Assembly: GCA_902787825.1 (NCBI GenBank)
Contig: CADAHS010000001.1
Location: 74,063-138,062 of the forward strand
Source of the DNA: an uncultured Ruminococcus sp.
GTDB lineage: Bacteria > Bacillota > Clostridia > Oscillospirales > Ruminococcaceae
Length of the DNA stretch: 64,000 nt
Direction of reading: 5' to 3'
Numbering within the stretch: position 1 is the first letter of the stretch; every line of letters begins with the position of its first letter. The position numbers were made by a program, and so were the translations under genes. The notes below the pieces were generated by a model, which searched no databases, was not told the DNA's origin, and saw only the letters and a list, made by a program, of their open reading frames with translations. Shown here in pieces: positions 49,637-62,312 of this stretch.

Positions 49637-52600
49637 ATGATTGAAAATGATGCAAATTTAATCAAAATATCTCAAGCGCTGCTTGATGAATATGCGTGCG
49701 TATGCAGTGTTAATGTTGTAAACAACGAGTATCAGTGGTATTGGATAGATCCATCTCTCGATGCAATGCAAATAGAACCTGCTGGCACTGATTTCTTTAA
49801 AGACGTTGTCGGTTTTGTTGATCGTGTTGTTTATGAAGAAGATAGACAAGCACTTCTGGAAAACTTTAACGATAACAGCTTTCTTGAAAAACTAAGAAAT
49901 AATTCGGCATTAAACAATGTATTCAGACTTGTTATTGACGGCAGGCCTGTGTATCATTCGCTGCGTCTTATCAGAGATACCGGCGATGATCATTGTTTTA
50001 TTTTTGGTGCTGTTAATATTGATAAAGATTATCGCTGTAAGCTTGAGTCTGATAACGCTGTGAGTGAGCAGTCGTTATTTGACCAAATTGCAGAAAGTCT
50101 TGTGTCACATTATGATGTTATCTATTATGTAGATTTTAAAAGCAACTATTACACTAAATATGTTTCTAAAAATATTTATGGTAGTTTTGATATCAACTCA
50201 GCAGGAGATGACTTCTTTGAAGAAGCCAGGCAAAATGGTGCTCAGCTTATTCACCCTAAAGACAGGGATAGGATCCTTAATGTGCTTGAAAAAGAATATC
50301 TTATTGCTGTACTTGAAGACAGAAAACGTTACATTACCGAATACCGCTTGATAGTTGATGGTAAAACACAGCACACCAGAATGACAGTGATGTGGTCAAG
50401 CGATAAGATCCACATTATTATAGGTGTGGAAAATATCAATGAACAGGTAAGAAAAGAAAAAGAACAGTTCAGAGCTATGAGTATGGCTAATGAACTCGCA
50501 AGATGTGATGAGCTTACAGGTGTTAAGAATAAAAAGGCATATCATGAGCTGGAGGAATCGGTTAACAGCAATATCTCCAACGGACTTGATTATCTGCCGT
50601 TTGCGATAGTCGTTTGCGATGTAAATGATCTGAAGCGTGTGAATGATACTCAAGGCAGCAAATCCGGCGACGAATATATACGTTCTGCATGCCGTTTCAT
50701 ATGTAATACCTTTAAACATTCACAGGTCTTTCGTATCGGAGGAGATGAGTTTGTCGCTTTTTTAGGAAGCGGCGACTTCTATACAAGAGAAGACCTTGTG
50801 CAGAAATTCAAAAGTATTGTATTCAATAATATAAAAAACGGTGAGGGCGCTGTAGTTGCAATCGGAATGTCTGTTTTCGATCCGGCGACCGATAAAAATG
50901 TGATAGATGTTTTTGAACGTGCAGACAGCGAAATGAAATTAAATAAGGCAAAACTGAAGTCATATTATAATAATTCAGATGATACGCCATATCTGCACAG
51001 AATAGATGTTACTATCCCGCCTGAAAGGAAAAAATTCTTAGAGGGCCTGTTTAATGCGTTTTCTGTTATCACTGAAGGAACATATGTGTATCTTTGCGAT
51101 ATGAAATATGACTATTCTATATGGTCTAAGGCTGCTGTTGATACATTCGGACTGCCTTCTGAGCATATGTACCGTGCAGGAGATATCTGGGAGGAACATA
51201 TTCATCCCGATGACAGAGCAACTTATCATCGTGGTATCAATGATATATTTACCGGAAATGCGGCTGGACACGATATGCAGTACAGAGCAAGACGTCTTAA
51301 CGGAAAGTATGATGTGTGCACCTGTCGTGGTATAGTGCTGAGAGATCAGAACGGCGATCTTGATTATTTTGGCGGTTCGATAAGAAATCACGGCTTGCAG
51401 GGACAAGCAGATGCACTCACAGGTCTCAGAAATCTGTACGGCTTCTTTGAAGATCTCCAGTCGTATATGAATAAGAATACCAGTATAAGTGTTTGTCTTG
51501 TAGGTATCAGTAAGTTTTCCGAAATAAATGAGATCTATGGATATCATTTCGGAAACAGAGTGCTTCAGGGGTTTGGAAGATTCCTCTTTGAACATGTTGG
51601 AAATCTGGGAAGTGTTTATCGCCTTGACGGTACTAAATTTGCTGTGTTAAGCAACAGTCAGACTGTTGAGGATATTAAAGAAAAATATGAGGACCTTCGT
51701 GAGTATTTCAGAGAGAAATTTGTTGTTGAAAACAAAAATATTATTCTTGATCTTAACTGTGGATTGTTGTGTGTTGATAATTTTGATATTGACTATCAGA
51801 CAGTCTATGCGTGTCTCAACTACTCATACAGTGAGTCAAAACTGCGTAAACACGGGGAAATCGTAGAGTTCAGCAATGATATAAATGATGAGAATAAGCA
51901 TATTATTGAAAAACTCCATGTTATAAGAGATTCTATTATGCGGGATTACAAGGGCTTTTTCCTGCTGTATCAGCCGGTTGTCGATGCACAGACAGAAAAG
52001 CTTGTTGGAGCAGAAGCTTTGCTCAGATGGCGAAATGACGAATATGGTACTGTTCCGCCGGACAGTTTTATTCCTGTGCTTGAACGTGACCCGCTATTTC
52101 CTGAACTTGGTGAGTGGATAATTCGTACAGCAATAAAAGCGGCTAAGAGGATAATGCAGTACTATCCGGATTTTATTATTAATGTCAATCTGTCGTATAG
52201 CCAGCTTGAAAAACCGGAATTTGTGGAAACGGTGCTGAATATTCTGAGAAAAGAGAATTTCCCGCCAAATCACCTTTGCCTTGAGATCACTGAAAGATGT
52301 AGGCTGCTCAATATGGATCTGCTGAAAAATATTGTTGTAAATCTGCGTGGCAGAGGGGTGCTTATGGCACTTGACGACTTTGGTACAGGATTTTCTTCAG
52401 TCGGACTTGTTAAAAATCTTGAGTTTGATGTTATCAAGATCGACAGAAGCTTCGTCCTAAAGATCGAGGAAGACGAAAAGGAGAGAAAGCTTATAGAACA
52501 CTTCGTAGGTCTTGGCTCGATTTTTGGAGCAAGCATATGTGTTGAGGGCATTGAAACCTCACAAATGCGTGATGTTCTCAAAAAATATGGCGTTAGCGGA

Positions 52601-52672
52601 TTCCAGGGATATTATTATTCAAAGCCAATTTTGATCGATGATCTGCTAAAGTGGAAAGATCCGGATAAATAA
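49637..52672 (+). CDS. Diguanylate cyclase/phosphodiesterase: 2x sensor-GGDEF-PAS-degenerate GGDEF-EAL
   Basis: Intact RIGGDEF; PAS-like HIHPDDR; second GGDEF-like domain reads RLDGTKF; intact EAL motifs (AEALLRW, EITE, DDFGTG, IKID, EGIE, QGYYYSKP). Confidence 0.93.
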   Translation: MIENDANLIKISQALLDEYACVCSVNVVNNEYQWYWIDPSLDAMQIEPAGTDFFKDVVGFVDRVVYEEDRQALLENFNDNSFLEKLRNNSALNNVFRLVIDGRPVYHSLRLIRDTGDDHCFIFGAVNIDKDYRCKLESDNAVSEQSLFDQIAESLVSHYDVIYYVDFKSNYYTKYVSKNIYGSFDINSAGDDFFEEARQNGAQLIHPKDRDRILNVLEKEYLIAVLEDRKRYITEYRLIVDGKTQHTRMTVMWSSDKIHIIIGVENINEQVRKEKEQFRAMSMANELARCDELTGVKNKKAYHELEESVNSNISNGLDYLPFAIVVCDVNDLKRVNDTQGSKSGDEYIRSACRFICNTFKHSQVFRIGGDEFVAFLGSGDFYTREDLVQKFKSIVFNNIKNGEGAVVAIGMSVFDPATDKNVIDVFERADSEMKLNKAKLKSYYNNSDDTPYLHRIDVTIPPERKKFLEGLFNAFSVITEGTYVYLCDMKYDYSIWSKAAVDTFGLPSEHMYRAGDIWEEHIHPDDRATYHRGINDIFTGNAAGHDMQYRARRLNGKYDVCTCRGIVLRDQNGDLDYFGGSIRNHGLQGQADALTGLRNLYGFFEDLQSYMNKNTSISVCLVGISKFSEINEIYGYHFGNRVLQGFGRFLFEHVGNLGSVYRLDGTKFAVLSNSQTVEDIKEKYEDLREYFREKFVVENKNIILDLNCGLLCVDNFDIDYQTVYACLNYSYSESKLRKHGEIVEFSNDINDENKHIIEKLHVIRDSIMRDYKGFFLLYQPVVDAQTEKLVGAEALLRWRNDEYGTVPPDSFIPVLERDPLFPELGEWIIRTAIKAAKRIMQYYPDFIINVNLSYSQLEKPEFVETVLNILRKENFPPNHLCLEITERCRLLNMDLLKNIVVNLRGRGVLMALDDFGTGFSSVGLVKNLEFDVIKIDRSFVLKIEEDEKERKLIEHFVGLGSIFGASICVEGIETSQMRDVLKKYGVSGFQGYYYSKPILIDDLLKWKDPDK

Positions 52673-52714: not shown

Positions 52715-52766
52715 GATAAAAAACACTTGAAAATGAAAAAGAAATATGTTATACTAAAATAGTGAT

Positions 52767-52838
52767 GCAGATATAGTATAGCGGTCATTACTCCAGTTTC
52801 CCAAACTGGTGATGCGGGTTCGACTCCCGTTATCTGCT
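52767..52838 (+). tRNA. tRNA-Gly(CCC)
   Basis: Acceptor GCAGATA/TATCTGC, anticodon stem CCAGT/ACTGG with loop TTCCCAA, T-loop GTTCGACT; promoter TTGAAA(52727)-17-TATACT(52750). Confidence 0.95.
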
Positions 52839-53071: not shown

Positions 53072-53869
53072 TTAGTTGCTTCCAGGACCGTCTACGTTAA
53101 ATGTAAGTGTAATGCCTTCTGCTGTCTTGCCAACGATCTTTGTAAGGTTAGATGTCTTAACAGCTGTAACATCACCGTCATAGTATACATATACATCAAC
53201 GTCTATAACATTGTCACCTGAAATTGTATTTGCAAGTACTACTGTACCGGTTGCATTTGCCTCGAATTTCTGGAAACCTGTTGCAGTAGCTACAACTACA
53301 CGAGTAGGATCGCCTTCGATACCGTCTGTAAGGTTAGAAAGATCAACCTTAAGGTTTGTAGCATCTTCTGAATCTTCTGCCAGACAGATATGAAGTGTCT
53401 TCTTCAGAACTCTTTCAGAGAAAATTGTGGTGGTATCTGTTGCACTCTTAGGAGTTGTTTCGTTGAATTCAACCTTAGTTCCGGTCTTGAGAGTACCGTC
53501 ATCGTATCCGGTACCTTCACCAAAATACCAGTTATTAGCTGTTGTCGGATTTACAGAAGGGTTAACCTCTGAAGTGCCATCTTTTGCAAGTGCTGCAGGA
53601 TACAGTTCTGCACTGTTGCTTGCAGCAGCAAATGTTACACTGGTCTTATTCTCTGTTCTGATGTCAGATGCGGTAGAATACTGCTCACTGATAAGTAAGT
53701 AGGTCGTATCAGCCTTAGCAGTGATGTTAAGTGTCTGAGCAGTAACATTTTTGTTCAGTGAGAACCATGCGAAGGTTGACGAAACGAGCATTGCTGCTGA
53801 AACTGTGAGCATTCCTACTGCCGATAACAGTTTCATCTTGTTTCCGTGTTTCTTCTTTGTATTAGTCAT
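53072..53869 (-). CDS. Secreted SipW-dependent protein (TasA/camelysin-like fibre subunit candidate)
   Basis: Basic N-terminus, hydrophobic core, SSTFA|WF cleavage motif of SipW-cognate signal peptides; Thr/Ala/Asn-rich beta-type mature domain. Start ATG 53869 after GGAAAGGGG. Confidence 0.8.
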   Translation of the reverse strand: MTNTKKKHGNKMKLLSAVGMLTVSAAMLVSSTFAWFSLNKNVTAQTLNITAKADTTYLLISEQYSTASDIRTENKTSVTFAAASNSAELYPAALAKDGTSEVNPSVNPTTANNWYFGEGTGYDDGTLKTGTKVEFNETTPKSATDTTTIFSERVLKKTLHICLAEDSEDATNLKVDLSNLTDGIEGDPTRVVVATATGFQKFEANATGTVVLANTISGDNVIDVDVYVYYDGDVTAVKTSNLTKIVGKTAEGITLTFNVDGPGSN

Positions 53870-53988
53870 AATAAATTCCCCTTTCCAAGAATTTAATTTA
53901 CTGTGACCTGTGTTTATAGCCGAAACCAAGGTCACCGTTCCTCTTTAGGAAACCCAATAATAAATAGTTTTCCGTTTCCTTGAATTAA

Positions 53989-54017
53989 AGTATACACAAC
54001 TTGTGCTAATTTGTCAA
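53989..54017 (-). promoter_or_regulatory. Sigma-A-type promoter of the TasA-like gene
   Basis: Minus strand TTGACA(54017-54012)-17-TATACT(53994-53989), TG upstream of the -10. Confidence 0.8.
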
Positions 54018-54205
54018 TAGTTTCAGTGTAATTAGTTTATTTAACAAAACAAATTTGGAGAAAGTATACTTGTTCGGTTCTTGTTTTTGTGCAAAAAGTC
54101 TAAAAAACGTTTTCGTGAGTTGTTGCTTGTGTTTGATTTGTTTAAATCTATCGACTAATTCTTCCTAAAAATATCGTATTTTCGTGATATTTGTTCTTAA
54201 TTCGC

Positions 54206-54234
54206 TTGACAAAAGAAACAAAATATCGTATAAT
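54206..54234 (+). promoter_or_regulatory. Consensus sigma-A promoter of the EAL*-sipW-AAA operon
   Basis: TTGACA(54206)-17-TATAAT(54229). Confidence 0.85.
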
Positions 54235-54278
54235 AATTACGAATAAATTATGCATTCTTAACTTATGCATAAATCGAG

Positions 54279-55070
54279 GTGATAGGATTGAAGCTGAAAA
54301 ATAATGCGACCGTCGGCGGCTTGCGTGCTTTGGAACAGTACTTTCGTCCTATCGGTAACGTGCTCTCCGGTGAAACGATCGCTTTGCAGACTGCTTTTCG
54401 CATGAATAGTCCCTCAAGAGGGGTTATTTTTCCCAACGAGTATCTTCCTGTCCTGGAAGCCTATCCGGATCGTGCCGCAGATTTTATGCCACTTATATTC
54501 TACCATTTATATGATGCTATTGAAAATTTCAAGAAAAGAGATATTGAATGCAGGTTTATTACTCTGCCAATGCCGGTAAGCTTTCTTAAACGTGCTGATG
54601 CAGTTACGGGTACTGTAGAGCTTGCAAAGGCTTTTCATATCCACTCCGACAACATCTGCTTTGAGCTTTCTTCGGCATTGTACGGCGAAACGGACGATAC
54701 AGCGTCAAAGGCAATGTTTGCATTGCAAAGAGAGGGCTTCACGTTTATGCTCAACTCTTTCGGCGGTGAGGATAGTCCGACGATGCTGCTGTCGAGCTTT
54801 CCGGTAGACTATGTTATGATAAATGGTCTTTATACTACCGAGGCGATGCTTGGCGAACGCCACGAAGGCTGGGTAAGATCAGCTTTGAGCTATATTACGA
54901 GTCTGAACTGCTCTGCTATTGCTACTGAGGTCGTTAATTCGGCGCAGGGAGATAAACTCTCCTCACTTGGATGCAGCTATTGTGTGGGTGATTATACCGG
55001 AGATTGGGTCCAGAGAAAATATGTAAGACTTAGAACAGGAGACGAGCAAGACGATAATCAGCAGGAATAA
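54279..55070 (+). CDS. Stand-alone degenerate EAL-domain protein
   Basis: EAL-like layout (YFRPI...RG.I.P.EY.PV.E...FELS...PVDYVMIN) with EAL->QTA, DDFG->NSFG, QGY->VGD. Start GTG 54279 or TTG 54288. Confidence 0.75.
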   Translation: MIGLKLKNNATVGGLRALEQYFRPIGNVLSGETIALQTAFRMNSPSRGVIFPNEYLPVLEAYPDRAADFMPLIFYHLYDAIENFKKRDIECRFITLPMPVSFLKRADAVTGTVELAKAFHIHSDNICFELSSALYGETDDTASKAMFALQREGFTFMLNSFGGEDSPTMLLSSFPVDYVMINGLYTTEAMLGERHEGWVRSALSYITSLNCSAIATEVVNSAQGDKLSSLGCSYCVGDYTGDWVQRKYVRLRTGDEQDDNQQE

Positions 55071-55123
55071 TTCTTTATATAATATAATGATACAAGTTTT
55101 GCGGAAAGGAGGTATATCTGCTT

Positions 55124-55942
55124 ATGAGTAAGAAGAAAAAAGAAGCTAAGCAGCAGGCTGAACTTGAAAACCAGCAGCTTGATGAAAGCACTGAAGCAGC
55201 TGTGAAATCAAGTTCCGATGACAAGGAGAAGGAACAAGCTCTCAGAGATGTCCTGCATATAAGGCGTACAGCTAAGGAAGTTAAGCGGTATACTATCCTG
55301 ATGCGAGTTACAGGACTTATAGCTGTGGCTCTGATAGCGCTGATAGCGATAGGATATGCAATAGCTTATTTTTATAACAAATACGGAAGCTTTACTATTA
55401 AGGTCAACAAATATGATATGGTCAACCAGGGACTTTCACTTTCTGAAACACCCGAATTTGACAGGACCATTTCAGTATTGACCGCTGATATCGTCTATGA
55501 TATGACCAACATCAGCGGAAATGATCTTCCTGAAAATATAGACAAAGTCAACGGAAACCATAACGGCAGGAATTATATCGCCTATACATTCTATGTGCAT
55601 AACTCAGGTAAGGATACAATAACATATGAAGGCGATCTTACTATTGAAAATGTAACTAAGAACGTTGACGAGGCTATCCGTGTGGCTGTTTATACCAATG
55701 GTGAGAAGCAGGTCTATGGTAAGACAAAGTCTAATGGAAGCGGTAAGGAAAGTGACTGCGATAAGGAATTCCTGACCAGTACTCAGGTGATGCATACAAA
55801 CGTTACTGACTTTGAACCGGGCGATACGACCAAATACACTGTGGTTATCTGGCTCGAAGGAAATGACCCTGACTGTGTTGATTCGATAATCGGTGGTGTC
55901 ATAAAAATGCAGATGGATTTCAGGATCGTAGAGAATACGTAA
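55124..55942 (+). CDS. Single-TM protein with extracellular TasA/camelysin-like domain
   Basis: Charged N-terminal region, TM ending YAIA-YF, YTFYVHNSG and YTVVIWLEGND motifs; GGAGG RBS. Confidence 0.7.
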   Translation: MSKKKKEAKQQAELENQQLDESTEAAVKSSSDDKEKEQALRDVLHIRRTAKEVKRYTILMRVTGLIAVALIALIAIGYAIAYFYNKYGSFTIKVNKYDMVNQGLSLSETPEFDRTISVLTADIVYDMTNISGNDLPENIDKVNGNHNGRNYIAYTFYVHNSGKDTITYEGDLTIENVTKNVDEAIRVAVYTNGEKQVYGKTKSNGSGKESDCDKEFLTSTQVMHTNVTDFEPGDTTKYTVVIWLEGNDPDCVDSIIGGVIKMQMDFRIVENT

Positions 55943-55962
55943 GAATTAAGGGGAGAAAATTT

Positions 55963-56664
55963 ATGAAAAAAGCGTTGAAAATTGCAGGCAGTGTTCTTGC
56001 GTGGATCTTGCTGATATTTGCTCTGCTGATTACTATAATGGTTTTTACCTCGGATAAGAACAACGGCGTTCCGAGCCTTTTCGGACGAATGCCGATGACT
56101 GTTGAGTCTGCGTCAATGGAACCTACCTTCAAGGAGGGCGACCTGATCATTTCAAAGGAGATCGACGATATCAACGATCTTAAAGTTGATGATGTTATCT
56201 CTTTCTGGACAAATGAGATCGTTGAAGGACAAAATGTTGTCAATACCCACCGAATTGTTGAGATAAAAGACGATAACGGAACAAAAGCTTTTGTTACAAA
56301 GGGTGATAACAACGAAAACAATGACTCTTATCTGGTTTATCCGAGTAAGATAGTTGGAAAGTGGACAGGCACAAGGCTCGGCGGAGTCGGAAAAATATTA
56401 AAATTCCTAAAGACAAAAACCGGATTTCTTGTATGTATCCTGATCCCGATGGCGATATTCTTCCTGTTTGAGCTGTTTAAGCTTATAATGGTCATCGTTC
56501 AGATGAAACAGCCTGCAAAGCTTACAGAAAATGATGAAGAAGAGATCAAGAAAAGAGCGATCGAGGAGTATCTTGCAGAGCAGCAAAAGCTTAAAGAAAA
56601 TCAGCCGCAGCAGGATCCCCCGCAGCAGACTCAGCAACAGACATCGACTGATAATGCAGAGTAG
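55963..56664 (+). CDS. sipW: Signal peptidase I, SipW (ER/archaeal-type), copy 1
   Basis: VESASMEPT (Ser), GD, NTHRIV (His), TKGDNN..ND; N- and C-terminal TM segments. Confidence 0.9.
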   Translation: MKKALKIAGSVLAWILLIFALLITIMVFTSDKNNGVPSLFGRMPMTVESASMEPTFKEGDLIISKEIDDINDLKVDDVISFWTNEIVEGQNVVNTHRIVEIKDDNGTKAFVTKGDNNENNDSYLVYPSKIVGKWTGTRLGGVGKILKFLKTKTGFLVCILIPMAIFFLFELFKLIMVIVQMKQPAKLTENDEEEIKKRAIEEYLAEQQKLKENQPQQDPPQQTQQQTSTDNAE

Positions 56665-56708
56665 TTTGACTGCCCTGTAAATCCGATAGAAAGGAAAACA
56701 AGGAAAAC

Positions 56709-58283
56709 ATGAGTAACTTTTTGGATTGGTTCTTTGTTTTTATTTCTGAAATTCTTAAAGGCTTTGCAAGTATATTCAAAGGATTTTGGGAAGGTATAAA
56801 GCAAATTTTCAATATCAAGAATTATATCAACATTTTCAAGGCTCATTCCGAAAGCTTCGGTGTGCTGGAGTGGATACTTGCGATCTTGTCGATAATTCTT
56901 GTTATGGCTATTTTCCTGCTTATCATTTTCATGATAGTGCTGGCAATAAGAAAATACATTCGTTTCAGGCATTCGCTTGTCAGCGATGAGGATCTGCTCG
57001 AGGAGATCGGTGTTCTTCAGCGCCAGGTCATTAAAATGACTAAGGAAAAGGACGAAATTATGGCGATGAAGGTCGCTCAGATGGGCGGCGGTCCTATGGC
57101 TCTTTCAGGAGCAATGGGTGGAACGCTGTCGCTCGGAGACGGCGAGACAGGAGAACAGCCTCAGGGAGAAGAACAGACACAGGAAGGCGTTGTTGTTACG
57201 ACTGTCAAACGTTTCTCCAAGCTTATCGAAGTGGACAACTTCTACAAAACTTATACTCCGCCAGAATATGACAATAACTGTACGCTTGAGCAGATTTGTG
57301 AGGATTACAGAAACTTTGCCTGCTCCAGAATGCATCTGTTTTACGATATAAAGACAATACGTCTGTTTATCGCAGGTATGGCTTCAACAAAGCTGATAAT
57401 CCTTCAGGGTATCTCAGGTACAGGTAAAACATCACTTCCGTATTCGTTCGGTAAGTTCCTCGGCGTTGATACGACCATTGCTTCCGTTCAGCCTTCGTGG
57501 CGAGACAGAACCGAGCTTTTCGGTTTCTTTAACGAATTCACCAAGAACTTTAACGAAACAGAAGTACTTAAAAGAATTTATGCATCAAGCTTCAATAATG
57601 ATGTAAACTTTATCCTCCTTGATGAAATGAACATCGCAAGAGTTGAGTATTACTTCGCTGAGATGCTGTCCATACTTGAAATGCCTAACGCAGACGAGTG
57701 GAAGCTCGACCTCGTTCCTAATGTATGGAGCACTGACCCTGAAAACCTTGACAAGGGTATGATCAAGATACCGCAGAATGTATGGTACATTGGTACAGCC
57801 AATAACGACGACTCAACATTTGCGATCTCTGATAAGGTTTACGACCGTGCTCAGCCTATCAACCTCGATGCAAAGGGTATTGCATTTGATGCGCCTGATA
57901 CGCCGCCGATGTGCCTGGGATATGATCATCTCAATGACCTGTTTGAGGAAGCTTTCAAGAAGTATCCTATCAGTGATGAAAACCTCAAGAAGATACAGCA
58001 TCTGGATCTGTGGGTAATTGAAAAACTCCGTGTGGCTTTTGGTAACCGTATTATCAAGCAGATGGGTCTGTTTGTCCCTGTTTACGTTGCCTGCGGCGGA
58101 GATGAACTTGATGGAATCGACTATGTGATGGCTACCAAGATCTTCAGAAAGTTTGAATCTCTCAACCTTTCAATGCTTCGTGACGAGCTGAAGGATCTGT
58201 GTACATACCTTAAAAAGACCTTTGGTGCAAACAGCATGAAGGAATCCATCGCATACCTCGAACGTCTGCAAAAGCTTTATTAA
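56709..58283 (+). CDS. Membrane-anchored McrB-family AAA+ NTPase
   Basis: Amphipathic helix, TM and coiled coil, then GISGTGKT (Walker A), LLDEMNIARVEYYF (Walker B), GTANNDD (NxxD), SDKVYDRA, FGNR. Confidence 0.85.
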   Translation: MSNFLDWFFVFISEILKGFASIFKGFWEGIKQIFNIKNYINIFKAHSESFGVLEWILAILSIILVMAIFLLIIFMIVLAIRKYIRFRHSLVSDEDLLEEIGVLQRQVIKMTKEKDEIMAMKVAQMGGGPMALSGAMGGTLSLGDGETGEQPQGEEQTQEGVVVTTVKRFSKLIEVDNFYKTYTPPEYDNNCTLEQICEDYRNFACSRMHLFYDIKTIRLFIAGMASTKLIILQGISGTGKTSLPYSFGKFLGVDTTIASVQPSWRDRTELFGFFNEFTKNFNETEVLKRIYASSFNNDVNFILLDEMNIARVEYYFAEMLSILEMPNADEWKLDLVPNVWSTDPENLDKGMIKIPQNVWYIGTANNDDSTFAISDKVYDRAQPINLDAKGIAFDAPDTPPMCLGYDHLNDLFEEAFKKYPISDENLKKIQHLDLWVIEKLRVAFGNRIIKQMGLFVPVYVACGGDELDGIDYVMATKIFRKFESLNLSMLRDELKDLCTYLKKTFGANSMKESIAYLERLQKLY

Positions 58284-58294
58284 TAATACCTAAT

Positions 58295-58331
58295 GACCTG
58301 CCTTGCCATTAGCCAACGGGCAAGTCAGGTC
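58295..58331 (+). other. Intercistronic stem-loop
   Basis: GACCTG-CTTGCC / GGCAAG-CAGGTC pairing, followed by GCTTTT. Confidence 0.6.
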
Positions 58332-58425
58332 GCTTTTATATGTTTGATCCTATAATGATATGAATTCAGCTAACGATTGCTTATAAAAGAGTTATCTATT
58401 AATTTTTCTGAAAGGAGGGGAATGT

Positions 58426-60573
58426 GTGGACGAGTTTTATGACAAGTGGTATTCCAATTTTACTCAGACTATGGACGGTATGGAAGATAACGAGCTGTTC
58501 GATGCTATGCATTCCCTGATAATGTCAAGTAAGAACACCTTTGCCGTCAACCGCAAAATAATGGAAAAATCTGTTGACGTTTCGTGGGTAGATGCTATTG
58601 AGGAGGGTCTGAAGCACCTTGATACGGTGCTCAGAACACCGAGAGTTACTATCGAGGATGTTGGAGAGGTCGTTCCGATCGCACTTTCAAGAAAGATCAC
58701 AGTTGAATCTGTAAAGCATCTTGCTCAGCATACCGATCTTATTCAGGACTACGACCCTGTCACAAATACTATCACTCCTTCAAAAGTACTTAATGTACAT
58801 AAGGAGGAGAGTATGATGACCTATGAGAATAAGTTTATCAATACCCTCGTTGACAGGTTGTATGTGTTTATTATCAGACGATATGAAAAGCTTCAGGAGG
58901 TAGCTAAAGACGAAGAAGTGTTCTCTCTTTCCTATAATACCGATGTTGACGATAAAATGGGAAAGCAGATGAGCGTCAGCTTGAAGCTTGAAACTACCGA
59001 CAGTCTTGAAACTGTCAACGAAAGTGGTCTTACTGTCTGGGAAAGAGTTGAACACCTGAAAAAAGCCGTTGAAGGCTATAAAGGATCAAACTTCTGCCAG
59101 GCAATGGGCAATGTCTATATAAGACCGCCTGTAATGAGAACTAATGCTATCATGAAAAACGTGGACCTTAAAGCCTGCCTTACACTCTGGCAGTTCATCG
59201 AGGGCTACGATAAAGTCGGATATGAGATAAACGTTGTTGATACAGCTCAGAAGCTTGACGAGGACTATATGATGGATTTCTATAACCTTGTTGCTCTGAA
59301 TTTTCTGCTTTTCCGTTCGTATACTCATAAACCGACTAAAAAGGCAAATGAACTAAAAACCGCAAAATCTAAGGCGTTTCTCCCTAAGTTCCTTAAAAGG
59401 TTCAATAAGGATGATATGTCAAAATATGATGTTATGGCTCAGCCGCAAAGCCTTGGTGAAACAGTATATGACCACCAGGGAGAAGCTGGCGAGCTGAATA
59501 TCGGTCTGCTTAATGAGATCGACCAGGTCTTTGCTCTTGAAAAGGAGTATATCCGTGTTGAGCGTATCAGGACAGAGGTCGAGCGAATTGAACGTGAAAA
59601 GGCTGAAAAGAAGCGAGCGGAGGCAGAAGAAAGACGTCTCGAAGCTTTGCGTCGTGAGGCGATCAAGAAAGCTGAAGCGGAAAAAGCAGAGCGTGAGCGG
59701 ATACAGCGTGAAGAAGCTGAGCGGCTTAAAAAGGAATGGGAAGAAAGACAGCGTGCTGAAGCCGAAGAACGTGAAAGGCTTGCTAAGGAAGCAGCTGAGC
59801 GTGCTGAAAGAGAAAGACAGGAAGCCGAAGAGCGCAAGCAGCGTGAATATGATAACTTCCGCCGTGCTCAGCTTACTGCCGAGAGAATTGAGCAGGAGCG
59901 TATCAAAGCCGAGGAAGAAGCAAAACGTCTTGCAGAGGAGGAGGCAAATCTTACTCCGGAGCAGATCGCAGAAAGAGAGCGTCTGAGTGCAGAAAAGCTT
60001 GCTAAGGAAAAGCGGGAAAAGATTCGTGCAGACAGACTCCGTGAGGAAAGAGAGATCTACCGCAACAGAGATTTCCATACAATATATCTGGAATACTCAA
60101 GAAGTCCTTGGTGCGTGATAAGAAGATTCTTTATCACACTGTGGTGCGTGATCTTCCGCAAGCCTTATGTTCCTGATGTAGATCCTAAGTATTACAGAGC
60201 CGAATATCCCAAAAAGCATTGGCTCGAAAGACCTATGGAAACAGCTGCCGAGCGTGACGAGCGTCTGCAGATGAAGGTCTACTATAATAAATACGCTACT
60301 ATGTTCCCTTATGACTTCAAACGGTTCATTAAAGATATCAAGTGGAAGATGAAGAAGAAAAAACCGCTTACTGATGCACAGAAGCAGAAGATCAGACAAT
60401 CACTGCCTGTTATGACTCCGGAAGAGGTGAACGCAGAAAATGCTCGGATCAAGGCTTTGTTCAAGGAGTATCATGTAAGTGTGTTCACCAAGATAAAGAG
60501 AAAGTTCAAAGAGTGGCGTGAAGATAAGAAACTAAAGAATGAAAGGGTCAATGAAGAAGATGATAAAAAGTAA
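58426..60573 (+). CDS. DUF2357 (McrC N-terminal-like) protein with long E/R/A/K coiled coil and no recognisable nuclease domain
   Basis: TYENKFI motif and MRTNAIMKN..LKACL.LW segment; charged helix about 59539-60060; AAGGAGG RBS before GTG. Confidence 0.7.
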   Translation: MDEFYDKWYSNFTQTMDGMEDNELFDAMHSLIMSSKNTFAVNRKIMEKSVDVSWVDAIEEGLKHLDTVLRTPRVTIEDVGEVVPIALSRKITVESVKHLAQHTDLIQDYDPVTNTITPSKVLNVHKEESMMTYENKFINTLVDRLYVFIIRRYEKLQEVAKDEEVFSLSYNTDVDDKMGKQMSVSLKLETTDSLETVNESGLTVWERVEHLKKAVEGYKGSNFCQAMGNVYIRPPVMRTNAIMKNVDLKACLTLWQFIEGYDKVGYEINVVDTAQKLDEDYMMDFYNLVALNFLLFRSYTHKPTKKANELKTAKSKAFLPKFLKRFNKDDMSKYDVMAQPQSLGETVYDHQGEAGELNIGLLNEIDQVFALEKEYIRVERIRTEVERIEREKAEKKRAEAEERRLEALRREAIKKAEAEKAERERIQREEAERLKKEWEERQRAEAEERERLAKEAAERAERERQEAEERKQREYDNFRRAQLTAERIEQERIKAEEEAKRLAEEEANLTPEQIAERERLSAEKLAKEKREKIRADRLREEREIYRNRDFHTIYLEYSRSPWCVIRRFFITLWCVIFRKPYVPDVDPKYYRAEYPKKHWLERPMETAAERDERLQMKVYYNKYATMFPYDFKRFIKDIKWKMKKKKPLTDAQKQKIRQSLPVMTPEEVNAENARIKALFKEYHVSVFTKIKRKFKEWREDKKLKNERVNEEDDKK

Positions 60574-61279
60574 GCTCAAGCTTGCGGCAAAGATCACTCT
60601 GATCTCATTGATCGCAGTAATGTTTTTTATCGTTGTTTATGTTTTTGTTTGCAATATCCGTGGAAAGGTCGCAAGTATAGGCGGATACAGCATTATGAAA
60701 GTCCTTACAGGAAGCATGGAGCCGTCTATTCATGTGGACGATTATATCCTGATAAAGAAAACAGATGTTTCGCAGCTGGAAATAGGAGATGTCATAACAT
60801 TTTATTCTGACGATCCTCAGATCAAGGATATGCCTAATTCACATAGGATAATTGCTAAAAATAATGACGGCTCATTTACTGTTAAGGGAGATGCTAATCC
60901 TGTTGAAGACACCTATAAGGTCAGACCCGACAGAGTGATCGGAAAGTATGTCAGAAAGATCTGGATATTCCGGTTTATCGGCTCGTTTGCGTCATCAAGA
61001 AAACTGCTGATGATACTGTTTATCCTGCCTACAGTTTGTATCTGTATCTATGAATCAAGGACTCTTGTAAGGATAATCAGAGGAACTGACGGCGATGATG
61101 AGGATAATGACGATGAGGATAGTAACGATAATACTCTAAGTGATGAGCAAAAGAAACAAAAACTTATCCGTGAGGCTATTGAGAAGGAAAAGGAAAAGCT
61201 AAGACAGCAGGATAAGATCAATGAAAGTGAAGTGATAGTCAGTGGGTCAGGAAAAGATAATGAAAAGGAAGATGATTAG
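60551..61279 (+). CDS. sipW: Signal peptidase I, SipW, copy 2
   Basis: VLTGSMEPS (Ser), NSHRII (His), KGDANPVED; start overlaps the DUF2357 gene end. Confidence 0.9.
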   Translation: MKKMIKSKLKLAAKITLISLIAVMFFIVVYVFVCNIRGKVASIGGYSIMKVLTGSMEPSIHVDDYILIKKTDVSQLEIGDVITFYSDDPQIKDMPNSHRIIAKNNDGSFTVKGDANPVEDTYKVRPDRVIGKYVRKIWIFRFIGSFASSRKLLMILFILPTVCICIYESRTLVRIIRGTDGDDEDNDDEDSNDNTLSDEQKKQKLIREAIEKEKEKLRQQDKINESEVIVSGSGKDNEKEDD

Positions 61280-61700
61280 CGCTATAATCTGGTCGCTGAT
61301 ACTTCTCATTGCGTTGCTGGTGTTTATTGGTCTGTATATTGATAAGACTAAGGAAAACAAAGAAAGATACCGCACTCAATATAAAAACTGTATTTCTGAT
61401 GCAGCGGAGGAGATAGATACTTATCTTGACCGCAAGATAGACTATGATCTTCATTATAATATGGTGATCTCTTATCTGGGTTCGGCTCGGTCCTTCATTT
61501 TTCTGATGGAGGACGAAGAGATGACAGAGAAGCAAAAGTCGATAAATGAACTGCATTATTGTTTTGTCAAATACCCCGAACAGATGAAAACAAGACTCGA
61601 AGCTGTAAGCACCGCTTTAAAGGACGTGTACGATAATCTTGATAAAGGATACGATGAAATAAATGCCGTCGTTGATTCGGTAGATAAAATGGGTAAATAG
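61260..61700 (+). CDS. Hypothetical single-TM helical protein
   Basis: N-terminal TM (ISAIIWSLILLIALLVFIGLYI); overlaps the sipW2 stop. Confidence 0.75.
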   Translation: MKRKMISAIIWSLILLIALLVFIGLYIDKTKENKERYRTQYKNCISDAAEEIDTYLDRKIDYDLHYNMVISYLGSARSFIFLMEDEEMTEKQKSINELHYCFVKYPEQMKTRLEAVSTALKDVYDNLDKGYDEINAVVDSVDKMGK

Positions 61701-61715
61701 CAGGAGGGAAAGGCA

Positions 61716-61943
61716 ATGAGTGAAAAAAGAAAATATAAAAAGGAAATAATGAAATGCCGTAAGACTATCGAGGAGATCGAGCGAAAGCGTTCTCGTTCTC
61801 AGTCGGCGTTGGTGCAGGCTATCCTTCTTCAGGAGGAGCCGCAGGAAGCTGATGTTGAGTGGTTCAATAAGTATACAGGAGAGATAGATGCGGTCAGAAA
61901 GCATATGATAACTACTCAGAAAAAGCTTGATCTTATAAAATAG
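61716..61943 (+). CDS. Small coiled-coil hypothetical protein
   Basis: 75 aa, AGGAGG RBS, followed by a hairpin. Confidence 0.75.
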   Translation: MSEKRKYKKEIMKCRKTIEEIERKRSRSQSALVQAILLQEEPQEADVEWFNKYTGEIDAVRKHMITTQKKLDLIK

Positions 61944-61949
61944 CTCATA

Positions 61950-61979
61950 GACCACAGAGTGAATTTTTACTCTGTGGTC
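61950..61979 (+). terminator. Terminator/hairpin ending the operon
   Basis: GACCACAGAGT/ACTCTGTGGTC 11-bp perfect stem. Confidence 0.7.
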
Positions 61980-62109
61980 AAACTTTTTCAGCTTTTTTAT
62001 CTTTATTGTAAAAAAAGGCTTGACAAACAGAAACTATTTTGATATAATATATAAGCACTTGCAAATGACCGTTCGGGTAAAAACCGTAAAAGGCGGCTGT
62101 AAGCGTGAT

Positions 62110-62182
62110 GAGCTATTAGCTCAGTTGGCAGAGCATTTGACTTTTAATCAAAGGGTCTGGGGTTCGAATCCCCAATAGCTCA
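62110..62182 (+). tRNA. tRNA-Lys(TTT)
   Basis: Acceptor GAGCTAT/ATAGCTC, anticodon stem TTTGA/TCAAA with loop CTTTTAA, T-loop GTTCGAAT; promoter TTGACA(62020)-17-TATAAT(62043); terminator 62185-62213. Confidence 0.96.
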
Positions 62183-62312
62183 GTAACCGTTTGTCTGTTT
62201 CAGGCGAACGGTTCTTTGTTTTTTATGGTGTATGTGCTGTTTTTGCAAGATTGCAGTTGACGAAATGCAAAAAAAGTTATATAATGTTCTCAGTTATAAA
62301 CGACTGAAATGA

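Follow-up and report, generated by a model that had tools for sequence, protein, structure and literature searches.

The closest described relatives of the locus presented here are the CoCoPALM systems, named by Bell et al. (eLife 2024, PMC11090510, section 7). In these systems, an McrB GTPase of the NxD type is fused to an FtsB-like domain made of transmembrane and coiled-coil parts, the McrB and McrC homologs carry coiled coils, McrC lacks a nuclease, and signal peptidases are encoded alongside (PMC11090510). The published account is limited to one paragraph and a supplementary figure, includes no experiments, and defers further analysis (PMC11090510). A literature search found no follow-up paper on CoCoPALM. 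The locus described here lies in a stretch of 64,000 nucleotides from the genome of an uncultured rumen Ruminococcus sp.; this whole stretch is hereafter called the window. Its operon encodes, in order, an EAL-like protein, a transmembrane (TM) protein, a SipW-type signal peptidase (SipW1), an McrB-like GTPase, a DUF2357 (McrC-like) protein, a second SipW-type signal peptidase (SipW2), and two small proteins of 152 and 75 amino acids (aa). A gene for a secreted protein, referred to as the subunit, is transcribed divergently. The locus is of the CoCoPALM type and, because this class already has a name, the system is not new. An initial annotation made from the sequence alone had presented it as a combination without a described counterpart, a claim that is contradicted by Bell et al. 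2024 (PMC11090510), whose CoCoPALM account makes the same inference. We suggest that the locus is probably a system for the biogenesis of surface fibers or surface proteins that depends on SipW and links processing by this peptidase to a cytoplasmic GTPase module of McrBC descent.

An McrBC-derived pair within SipW operons

The organization of the locus is conserved. We compared the window proteins by tblastn with 80 related loci, which are from species-representative genomes matched by the GTPase. Among these 80 species-level genomes, the order EAL-TM protein-SipW1-GTPase-DUF2357-SipW2-152 aa-75 aa is kept in all loci of sufficient length. Identity to the window protein is 74–94% for the GTPase; for the TM protein, matched in 72 of 80 loci, it is 57–90%. 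The EAL-like gene is found in 70 of 80 loci. The 152-aa protein is kept in 67 of 80 loci (33–83% identity), and the 75-aa protein, which is the best conserved among the operon products, is 69–99% identical in 67 of 80. Carriers include members of Ruminococcus (R. albus AR67, KH2T6, and 8; R. flavefaciens YAD2003), Huintestinicola, Hominimerdicola, and other Oscillospiraceae, as well as metagenome-assembled genomes labelled Lachnospiraceae.

The association extends to more distant bacteria. Twenty class-level loci were scanned with hidden Markov models built from the 80 loci. In 13 of 13 class-level loci, from several families, in which the GTPase is at least 53% identical in the NTPase domain, it is located between SipW1 and DUF2357-SipW2. 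The TM protein is encoded in each of these loci, along with one to five subunit paralogs, and most of the loci have an EAL-like gene. All 80 related loci and all 13 distant ones have SipW-type genes on both sides of the GTPase/DUF2357 pair. The initial annotation had called for a neighborhood survey and had named the usual occurrence of such pairs without sipW as the outcome that would speak against it. Given this synteny, orthologous pairs (at least 53% identity) always occur with sipW, and the pair is, as had been proposed, fixed in an operon for SipW and secreted proteins.

Distribution of the GTPase differs with taxonomic depth. Within its own genus, 32 of 39 genomes carry the GTPase as a single copy (26 of 29 when restricted to high-quality genomes), and the GTPase domains are 83–98% identical. 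It is matched in 8 of 201 genomes and 6 of 166 genera of its own family, and in 22 of 399 genomes and 16 of 217 genera of its own class (∼7% of sampled Clostridia genera). In a phylum-level sample searched at an E value of 1e-60, there is no GTPase match except in the window's own genome.

In the 524-aa GTPase, a TM helix (residues ∼52–80) is followed by a short coiled coil and then, after a Gly-rich linker, by a GTPase domain (∼165–524) with the motifs GISGTGKT (Walker A), LLDEMN (Walker B), and GTANNDDS. The sensor GTANNDDS is N-x-D followed by D, in line with the description by Bell et al. (PMC11090510); a reading as NxxD is also possible, based on an ungapped alignment with NTAD of Escherichia coli. 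Similarity to E. coli McrB is weak (NF008457, 5.7e-4; PDB 6hz4, 1e-3). The GTPase has no DNA-reading N-terminal domain and has the TM helix and coiled coil in that place. All members of the GTPase clade have a strong TM segment (hydropathy of ∼3.3, calculated over 19 residues) followed by a heptad-like segment. The N-terminus has no match to DivIC or FtsB in a Pfam hmmscan with E values of up to 10; Bell et al. used HHpred. The nearest non-membrane relatives have an NIDE or NMDD motif and branch as an outgroup. NTPase domains were also placed in a tree, in which the membrane-anchored GTPases are all united in a single clade (100/100) relative to non-membrane NxD relatives, and 17 SipW-linked entries group together (90/83).

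The DUF2357 protein, for which the PF09823 match exceeds the gathering score, has an N-terminal domain (residues ∼1–345), a coiled coil of ∼170 aa that is rich in E, R, and K, and a basic C-terminal tail. Profile searches of this protein found no nuclease domain and no other domain, and a Pfam scan of the tail gave no match. Across 25 diverse DUF2357 homologs, there is no conserved pattern of acidic and Lys residues corresponding to D..(D/E)xK or PD-(D/E)xK. The pair is thus anchored in the membrane and has neither a DNA reader nor a nuclease, in agreement with what was first proposed.

The two peptidases score well above the TIGR02228 cut-off of 51.85 bits (98.7 for SipW1 and 88.1 for SipW2) and match NF046067 (6.5e-36 and 1.3e-23, respectively). 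Motifs SMEP, THRI, and GDNN are visible in the sequence of SipW1. The family calls of the initial annotation stand, for both SipWs (TIGR02228) as well as for the degenerate EAL protein (PF00563), the DUF2357 protein (PF09823), and the McrB-like GTPase with its membrane helix. A genome search indicates that SipW1 and SipW2 are the sole SipW-type peptidases of this genome. Each ends in a charged cytoplasmic tail of 45–60 aa (56539–56664 and 61090–61279, respectively), and the helices in these tails are similar (KKRAIEEYLAEQ and KLIREAIEKEKE). Bacillus subtilis SipW is ∼190 aa in size and is not known to have such tails. The cytoplasmic module may dock at the tails.

In 24 of ∼77 related loci, DUF2357 and SipW2 are fused in a single open reading frame (ORF) of 973–1026 aa (e.g., L020:11663–14626, L027:11590–14541, and L062:11613–14609, in addition to 21 other loci). 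In the fusions, the DUF2357 domain spans residues 2–345 and the peptidase is located at ∼765–985. Their cultured carriers include isolates of R. albus and R. flavefaciens. In the window and close relatives, DUF2357 and SipW2 are encoded by separate genes that overlap by 35 nucleotides (nt). The order in the fusion is topologically sensible, as it leads from the cytoplasmic McrC-like part to the first membrane helix of the peptidase. No other observation speaks as strongly as these fusions for action of the GTPase module on or with the peptidase.

The secreted subunit and its anchored paralog

The subunit has an N-terminal membrane helix that ends in SSTFA|WFSLNK, a SipW-type signal motif. The divergent secreted protein with a TFA|WF signal was correctly recognized in the initial annotation, and A-W-F of the motif is invariant in 39 homologs. 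The TM protein has a charged cytoplasmic N-terminal helix of ∼60 aa, a TM segment ending in YAIAYFYN, and an extracellular beta-sandwich. Its structure model (pLDDT, predicted local distance difference test, of 83) consists of a long helix (residues 3–86) and the sandwich (90–269). The model of the subunit is also a beta-sandwich, at low confidence (pLDDT 67). The subunit family and the TM protein align in hhalign at 97.4% (E of 1.4e-11), and a W.EG.D..C motif is common to the families of both. Judged by these comparisons, the TM protein is a paralog of the secreted subunit, and a genome search found one subunit gene and one anchored paralog only. In the cytoplasmic segment of the TM protein, R47 and R61 are nearly invariant, and because this cytoplasmic part is conserved, the N-terminal segment is more than a signal peptide. 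A Pfam scan of the cytoplasmic tail gave no match.

The location of the subunit gene is variable. In about half of the loci, it adjoins the operon in either orientation. In each of five genomes that lack an adjacent subunit gene, a full-length homolog is encoded elsewhere (E values of 1e-57 to 1e-69). Some loci have, directly after the 75-aa gene, a gene that encodes a protein of ∼320 aa with a long membrane helix ending in SLAWFT(I/L)DK (L025:15095–16060, L029:8741–9709, L037:15074–16039, and L068:15175–16170). This protein is absent from the window and may represent a further family of SipW clients.

A view of expression comes from four metatranscriptome runs of the bovine rumen, generated in two independent studies, with word depth of assembled contigs as a rough measure. 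Word depth is 17–81 for the subunit gene and 0–6 for the operon. A subunit that is 10–20 times deeper than the operon genes is expected if it is structural and they encode machinery. In two runs, Illumina adapter sequence marks the ends of the subunit contigs (53032 and 53964/53970), as would be expected for a defined, abundant, monocistronic RNA of ∼935 nt with a 5' end just downstream of the divergent promoter (54017–53989).

Locus layout and accessory genes

The region is made up of one ORF on the minus strand and eight on the plus strand (54279–61943; table 1). On rechecking of coordinates, these nine ORFs and their spacing are as first annotated, with intergenic gaps of 53, 20, 44, 142, and 15 nt in the operon and, besides the overlap of DUF2357 and SipW2, a 38-nt overlap of SipW2 with the 152-aa ORF. 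Likewise, the annotated consensus promoter and hairpin are both present. The 10 bases after the stem of the hairpin include five T.

Table 1. Coordinates of features of the locus, numbered from the first position of the window.
Feature	Position	Strand	Details
Subunit candidate ORF	53072–53935	−	Longest ORF starts at GTG 53935; probable start is ATG 53869, giving 53072–53869, 265 aa
Divergent promoter-like site of the subunit gene	53989–54017	−	TTGACA-17-TATACT, 11/12
Operon promoter, sigma-70-type consensus	54206–54234	+	TTGACA-17-TATAAT, 12/12
EAL-fold protein, stand-alone, catalytically degenerate	54279–55070	+	PF00563, 1.3e-23
TM protein, 272 aa, membrane-anchored subunit paralog (by comparison)	55124–55942	+	Structure model and hhalign
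SipW1, SipW-type (archaeal/ER-type) signal peptidase	55963–56664	+	TIGR02228, NF046067
McrB-like GTPase (AAA+), membrane-anchored, 524 aa	56709–58283	+	Motifs, PADLOC PDC-M26A, weak McrB match
DUF2357 (McrC-like) protein	58426–60573	+	PF09823, 8e-07
SipW2, SipW-type signal peptidase	60539–61279	+	TIGR02228, NF046067
152-aa protein	61242–61700	+	ORF; one N-terminal TM segment, helical domain
75-aa basic helical protein	61716–61943	+	ORF
Intrinsic-terminator-like hairpin closing the operon	61950–61979	+	13-bp stem, 6 GC pairs, T-rich tail

The EAL-like protein has lost the catalytic Glu, metal ligands, and Lys. Relative to the intact EAL domain encoded by the upstream gene, EAL is changed to QTA, DD to NS, and K to M, and one site is P. 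The protein is degenerate in 69–71 of 71 orthologs and, to judge from its catalytic residues, it is not an active cyclic di-GMP (c-di-GMP) phosphodiesterase. An Rfam search of the locus found no riboswitch for c-di-GMP or any other ligand and returned only the two flanking tRNAs. Control of the locus by c-di-GMP, part of the original proposal, is at most a possibility suggested by the EAL fold. Pfam scans assigned neither the 152-aa nor the 75-aa protein to a family.

The 1011-aa product of the gene just upstream (49637–52672) combines an intact EAL domain with a PAS domain and has two GGDEF matches. We considered this gene as a candidate for a conserved regulator but discarded the idea, given that only 10 of 80 loci match it; the matches are weak, their positions differ, and several fall on the degenerate EAL gene itself. 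The gene is therefore probably outside of the system and, not being conserved along with the locus, adds nothing to a link with c-di-GMP. In another family, a 755-aa protein containing an EAL domain follows the operon (L087–L090).

In the window, the locus is bracketed by genes for tRNA-Gly(ccc) (52767–52838) and tRNA-Lys(ttt) (62109–62183), each with its own promoter-like site (52727–52755 for the former; 62020–62048, 12/12 with extended −10 TG, for the latter). Neither a sign of an integrase nor a shift in composition was seen.

Proposed role and relation to described systems

In the mechanism that we propose, the abundant subunit and the anchored paralog would be exported via Sec and held in the membrane by N-terminal helices that end in (S/T)(F/Y)AWF or YAIAYF. 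By analogy with SipW, TasA, and TapA, both SipWs would cut at the A|WF-type motif and free the subunit, which would polymerize on, or attach to, the anchored paralog. In E. coli McrBC, the N-terminal (DUF2357) domain of McrC plugs the McrB ring. By homology, the GTPase, tethered at the inner face of the membrane, and the DUF2357 protein would form a nucleotide-driven ring-and-plug complex. We infer that this module most likely gates or times the action of the peptidase or organizes the site of assembly, such that control would depend on GTP and be directed at the peptidase. Such roles are favored by the DUF2357-SipW2 fusions and by the conserved cytoplasmic tails on the SipWs and the anchored paralog. 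For the degenerate EAL protein and both small proteins, we propose a role as adaptors or inputs, and the system is predicted not to cut nucleic acids. In a more specific version, which we raise tentatively, the GTPase pair would drive or gate a hitherto undescribed, nucleotide-dependent pathway that assembles Gram-positive surface fibers; physically coupled to a SipW peptidase, it would time both the cleavage of a new family of beta-sandwich subunits and their release from the anchored paralog.

Several results weigh against the proposed mechanism. PF12389 (TasA/camelysin, Peptidase_M73) has no match in the subunit, its 38 homologs, the genome, or the TM protein, and Pfam and NCBIfam scans of all 39 members of the subunit family recognized no family. 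TIGR04088 is matched by one of the 39 members (E of 0.033) and the TM protein has no convincing match to it. Foldseek gave no match that reaches an E value of 0.001 for the subunit and generic matches only for the sandwich of the TM protein. The top matches for the two models are cupins, carbohydrate-binding modules, and PA14-like domains, with no TasA among them, and searches of PDB sequences with profiles of the subunit and the TM protein found nothing meaningful. Weak hints of a fiber type come from Foldseek matches of the subunit to archaeal bundling pili (7ueg, probability of 0.92) and cannulae (9h8b, 0.80), both with E values of ∼0.02, and from the ESM-Atlas, in which Peptidase_M73 (TasA/camelysin) is the nearest named cluster to the subunit (0.88), a lead only. 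Of the initial label TasA-like, these hints are what stands; the PF12389 and TIGR04088 searches did not bear it out. A predicted complex of the TM-protein domain with two subunits scored 0.00, with no donor-strand complex, and is neither support nor counter-evidence. The GTPase domain with the N-terminal domain of DUF2357 also scored 0.00, no better than controls, a score that counts neither for nor against pairing, as a 1:1 prediction is a poor model for a ring with a plug. To our knowledge, TasA-type assembly needs no NTPase or cytoplasmic energy, which makes a role for the GTPase in a fiber system a conjecture. RNA contigs are too short to prove that one transcript spans the operon, and carry-over of DNA may contribute to its low-depth signal. 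We know of no experimental work on any member of the CoCoPALM class.

A further point against the proposed mechanism comes from the phylogeny. In the NTPase-domain tree, the membrane-anchored GTPases include a sister group (89/87) that lacks SipW. Its GTPases are 45–47% identical (L097:8145–17092, L098:9280–14814, L099:3262–12603, and L083:4475–17554) and are arranged as GTPase-DUF2357-GTPase, with one GTPase and DUF2357 in L098. Giant membrane proteins of a Transglut_core/TgpA-like type are encoded by the large genes that come next in L097 and L098. Together, the tree and the SipW or transglutaminase neighbors tie the whole membrane-anchored clade to maturation of envelope proteins and not to nucleic acids. 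As for the remaining neighborhoods, L099 has an ORF of 1383 aa where L097 and L098 have transglutaminase-type genes, L083 has a YDG-domain protein and a giant protein of 3176 aa in the neighboring position, and the group in L097 is directly after rpoA-rplQ. The transglutaminase neighbors raise the alternative of a general module for maturation or quality control of envelope proteins, in which the subunits are wall-associated or S-layer-like and form no polymer, and the GTPase pair acts via the peptidase here and via transglutaminase cross-linking in the sister clade. Such a module is also consistent with subunits that cannot be assigned to TasA or any pilin family and with the lack of a predicted donor-strand complex. 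However, the SipW-type motif and the one to five subunit paralogs per locus resemble known SipW fiber loci, the structural matches, weak as they are, are to donor-strand fibers, and an anchored paralog with an abundant free subunit fits an arrangement of anchor and shaft. We consider a maturation module without a polymer to be rather unlikely.

A function in defense is another point that has to be set against a role at the cell surface, because the best profile match of the GTPase is PADLOC PDC-M26A (1.5e-39), a phage-defense candidate. The closest non-membrane relatives of the GTPase carry the NxD motif of the CoCoNuT branch, and its distribution is patchy above the genus (6 of 166 genera in the family and 16 of 217 in the class). 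An antiphage or antiplasmid system could use the GTPase as a CoCoNuT-like membrane sensor that leads to abortive infection or blocks entry of DNA, with the peptidases and secreted proteins as effectors or decoys. Nonetheless, no nuclease, HEPN domain, or other effector was found, no partner of the GTPase has a PADLOC match, and the partners are envelope proteins, among which the subunit is encoded by a gene heavily represented in rumen RNA libraries. A single-copy and near-core GTPase with domains that are 83–98% identical and strict synteny of eight genes is untypical of defense islands, and we judge defense to be improbable. The tRNA-Gly and tRNA-Lys genes that flank the locus would be compatible with a chance juxtaposition or recent insertion, whereby a remnant of McrBC resides inside a sipW operon and shares no function with it. 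This is extremely improbable given the identical gene order in 80 species-level genomes and distant families of Clostridia, the overlapping genes, the fusion of DUF2357 and SipW2 in 24 loci, and the ranking of the GTPase among the best-conserved products of the operon.

Should the GTPase pair indeed drive or gate fiber assembly, a restriction-enzyme motor would for the first time be seen employed in cell-surface biogenesis. If the proposed mechanism is right, a GTPase known only from DNA restriction would have been turned into a part of a surface-fiber machine in major fiber-degrading bacteria of the rumen and gut. Adhesion to plant particles is central to the ecology of R. albus, R. flavefaciens, and their relatives.

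Relative to E. coli McrBC, the locus has in common an AAA+ GTPase core with Walker A and B motifs and an N..D sensor, and a partner with a DUF2357 domain. In contrast, the GTPase has a membrane helix instead of a DNA-binding N-terminal domain, there is no PD-(D/E)xK nuclease, and the context is one of envelope genes, not of restriction-modification or defense. CoCoNuTs and PDC-M26 are alike in the NxD-type branch of the GTPase, coiled-coil fusions, and McrC homologs that often lack an active nuclease (PMC11090510). CoCoNuTs differ in that HEPN or other nucleases are invariably present and a membrane anchor is missing, whereas the window locus has no nuclease of any kind and its partners are exported proteins. 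The biofilm-fiber operons tapA-sipW-tasA of Bacillus and sipW-tasA-calY of B. cereus likewise encode a dedicated SipW-type peptidase with its secreted substrates; their signals also end in a T-(F/Y)-A-x-F-like motif, and an abundant subunit is accompanied by an accessory or anchor paralog, as with TasA and TapA. Unlike these operons, the window locus has subunits with no PF12389 match and two SipWs with long cytoplasmic tails, and its obligatory parts include the cytoplasmic GTPase pair as well as an EAL-fold protein and the two small ones.

As in CoCoPALM, the McrB-like GTPase belongs to the NxD branch and has an N-terminal TM helix followed by a coiled coil, its DUF2357/McrC partner likewise has a coiled coil but lacks a nuclease, signal-peptidase genes are adjacent, and the carriers are Bacillota. 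The degenerate EAL protein, anchored subunit paralog, and two small proteins are not in the published account, nor are the DUF2357-SipW2 fusions and the transglutaminase-linked sister clade. CoCoPALM is a published name without a function, to which the synteny of eight genes, the DUF2357-SipW2 fusions, the anchored paralog, the highly expressed subunit gene, and the transglutaminase-linked sister clade add experimental handles in cultivable carriers.

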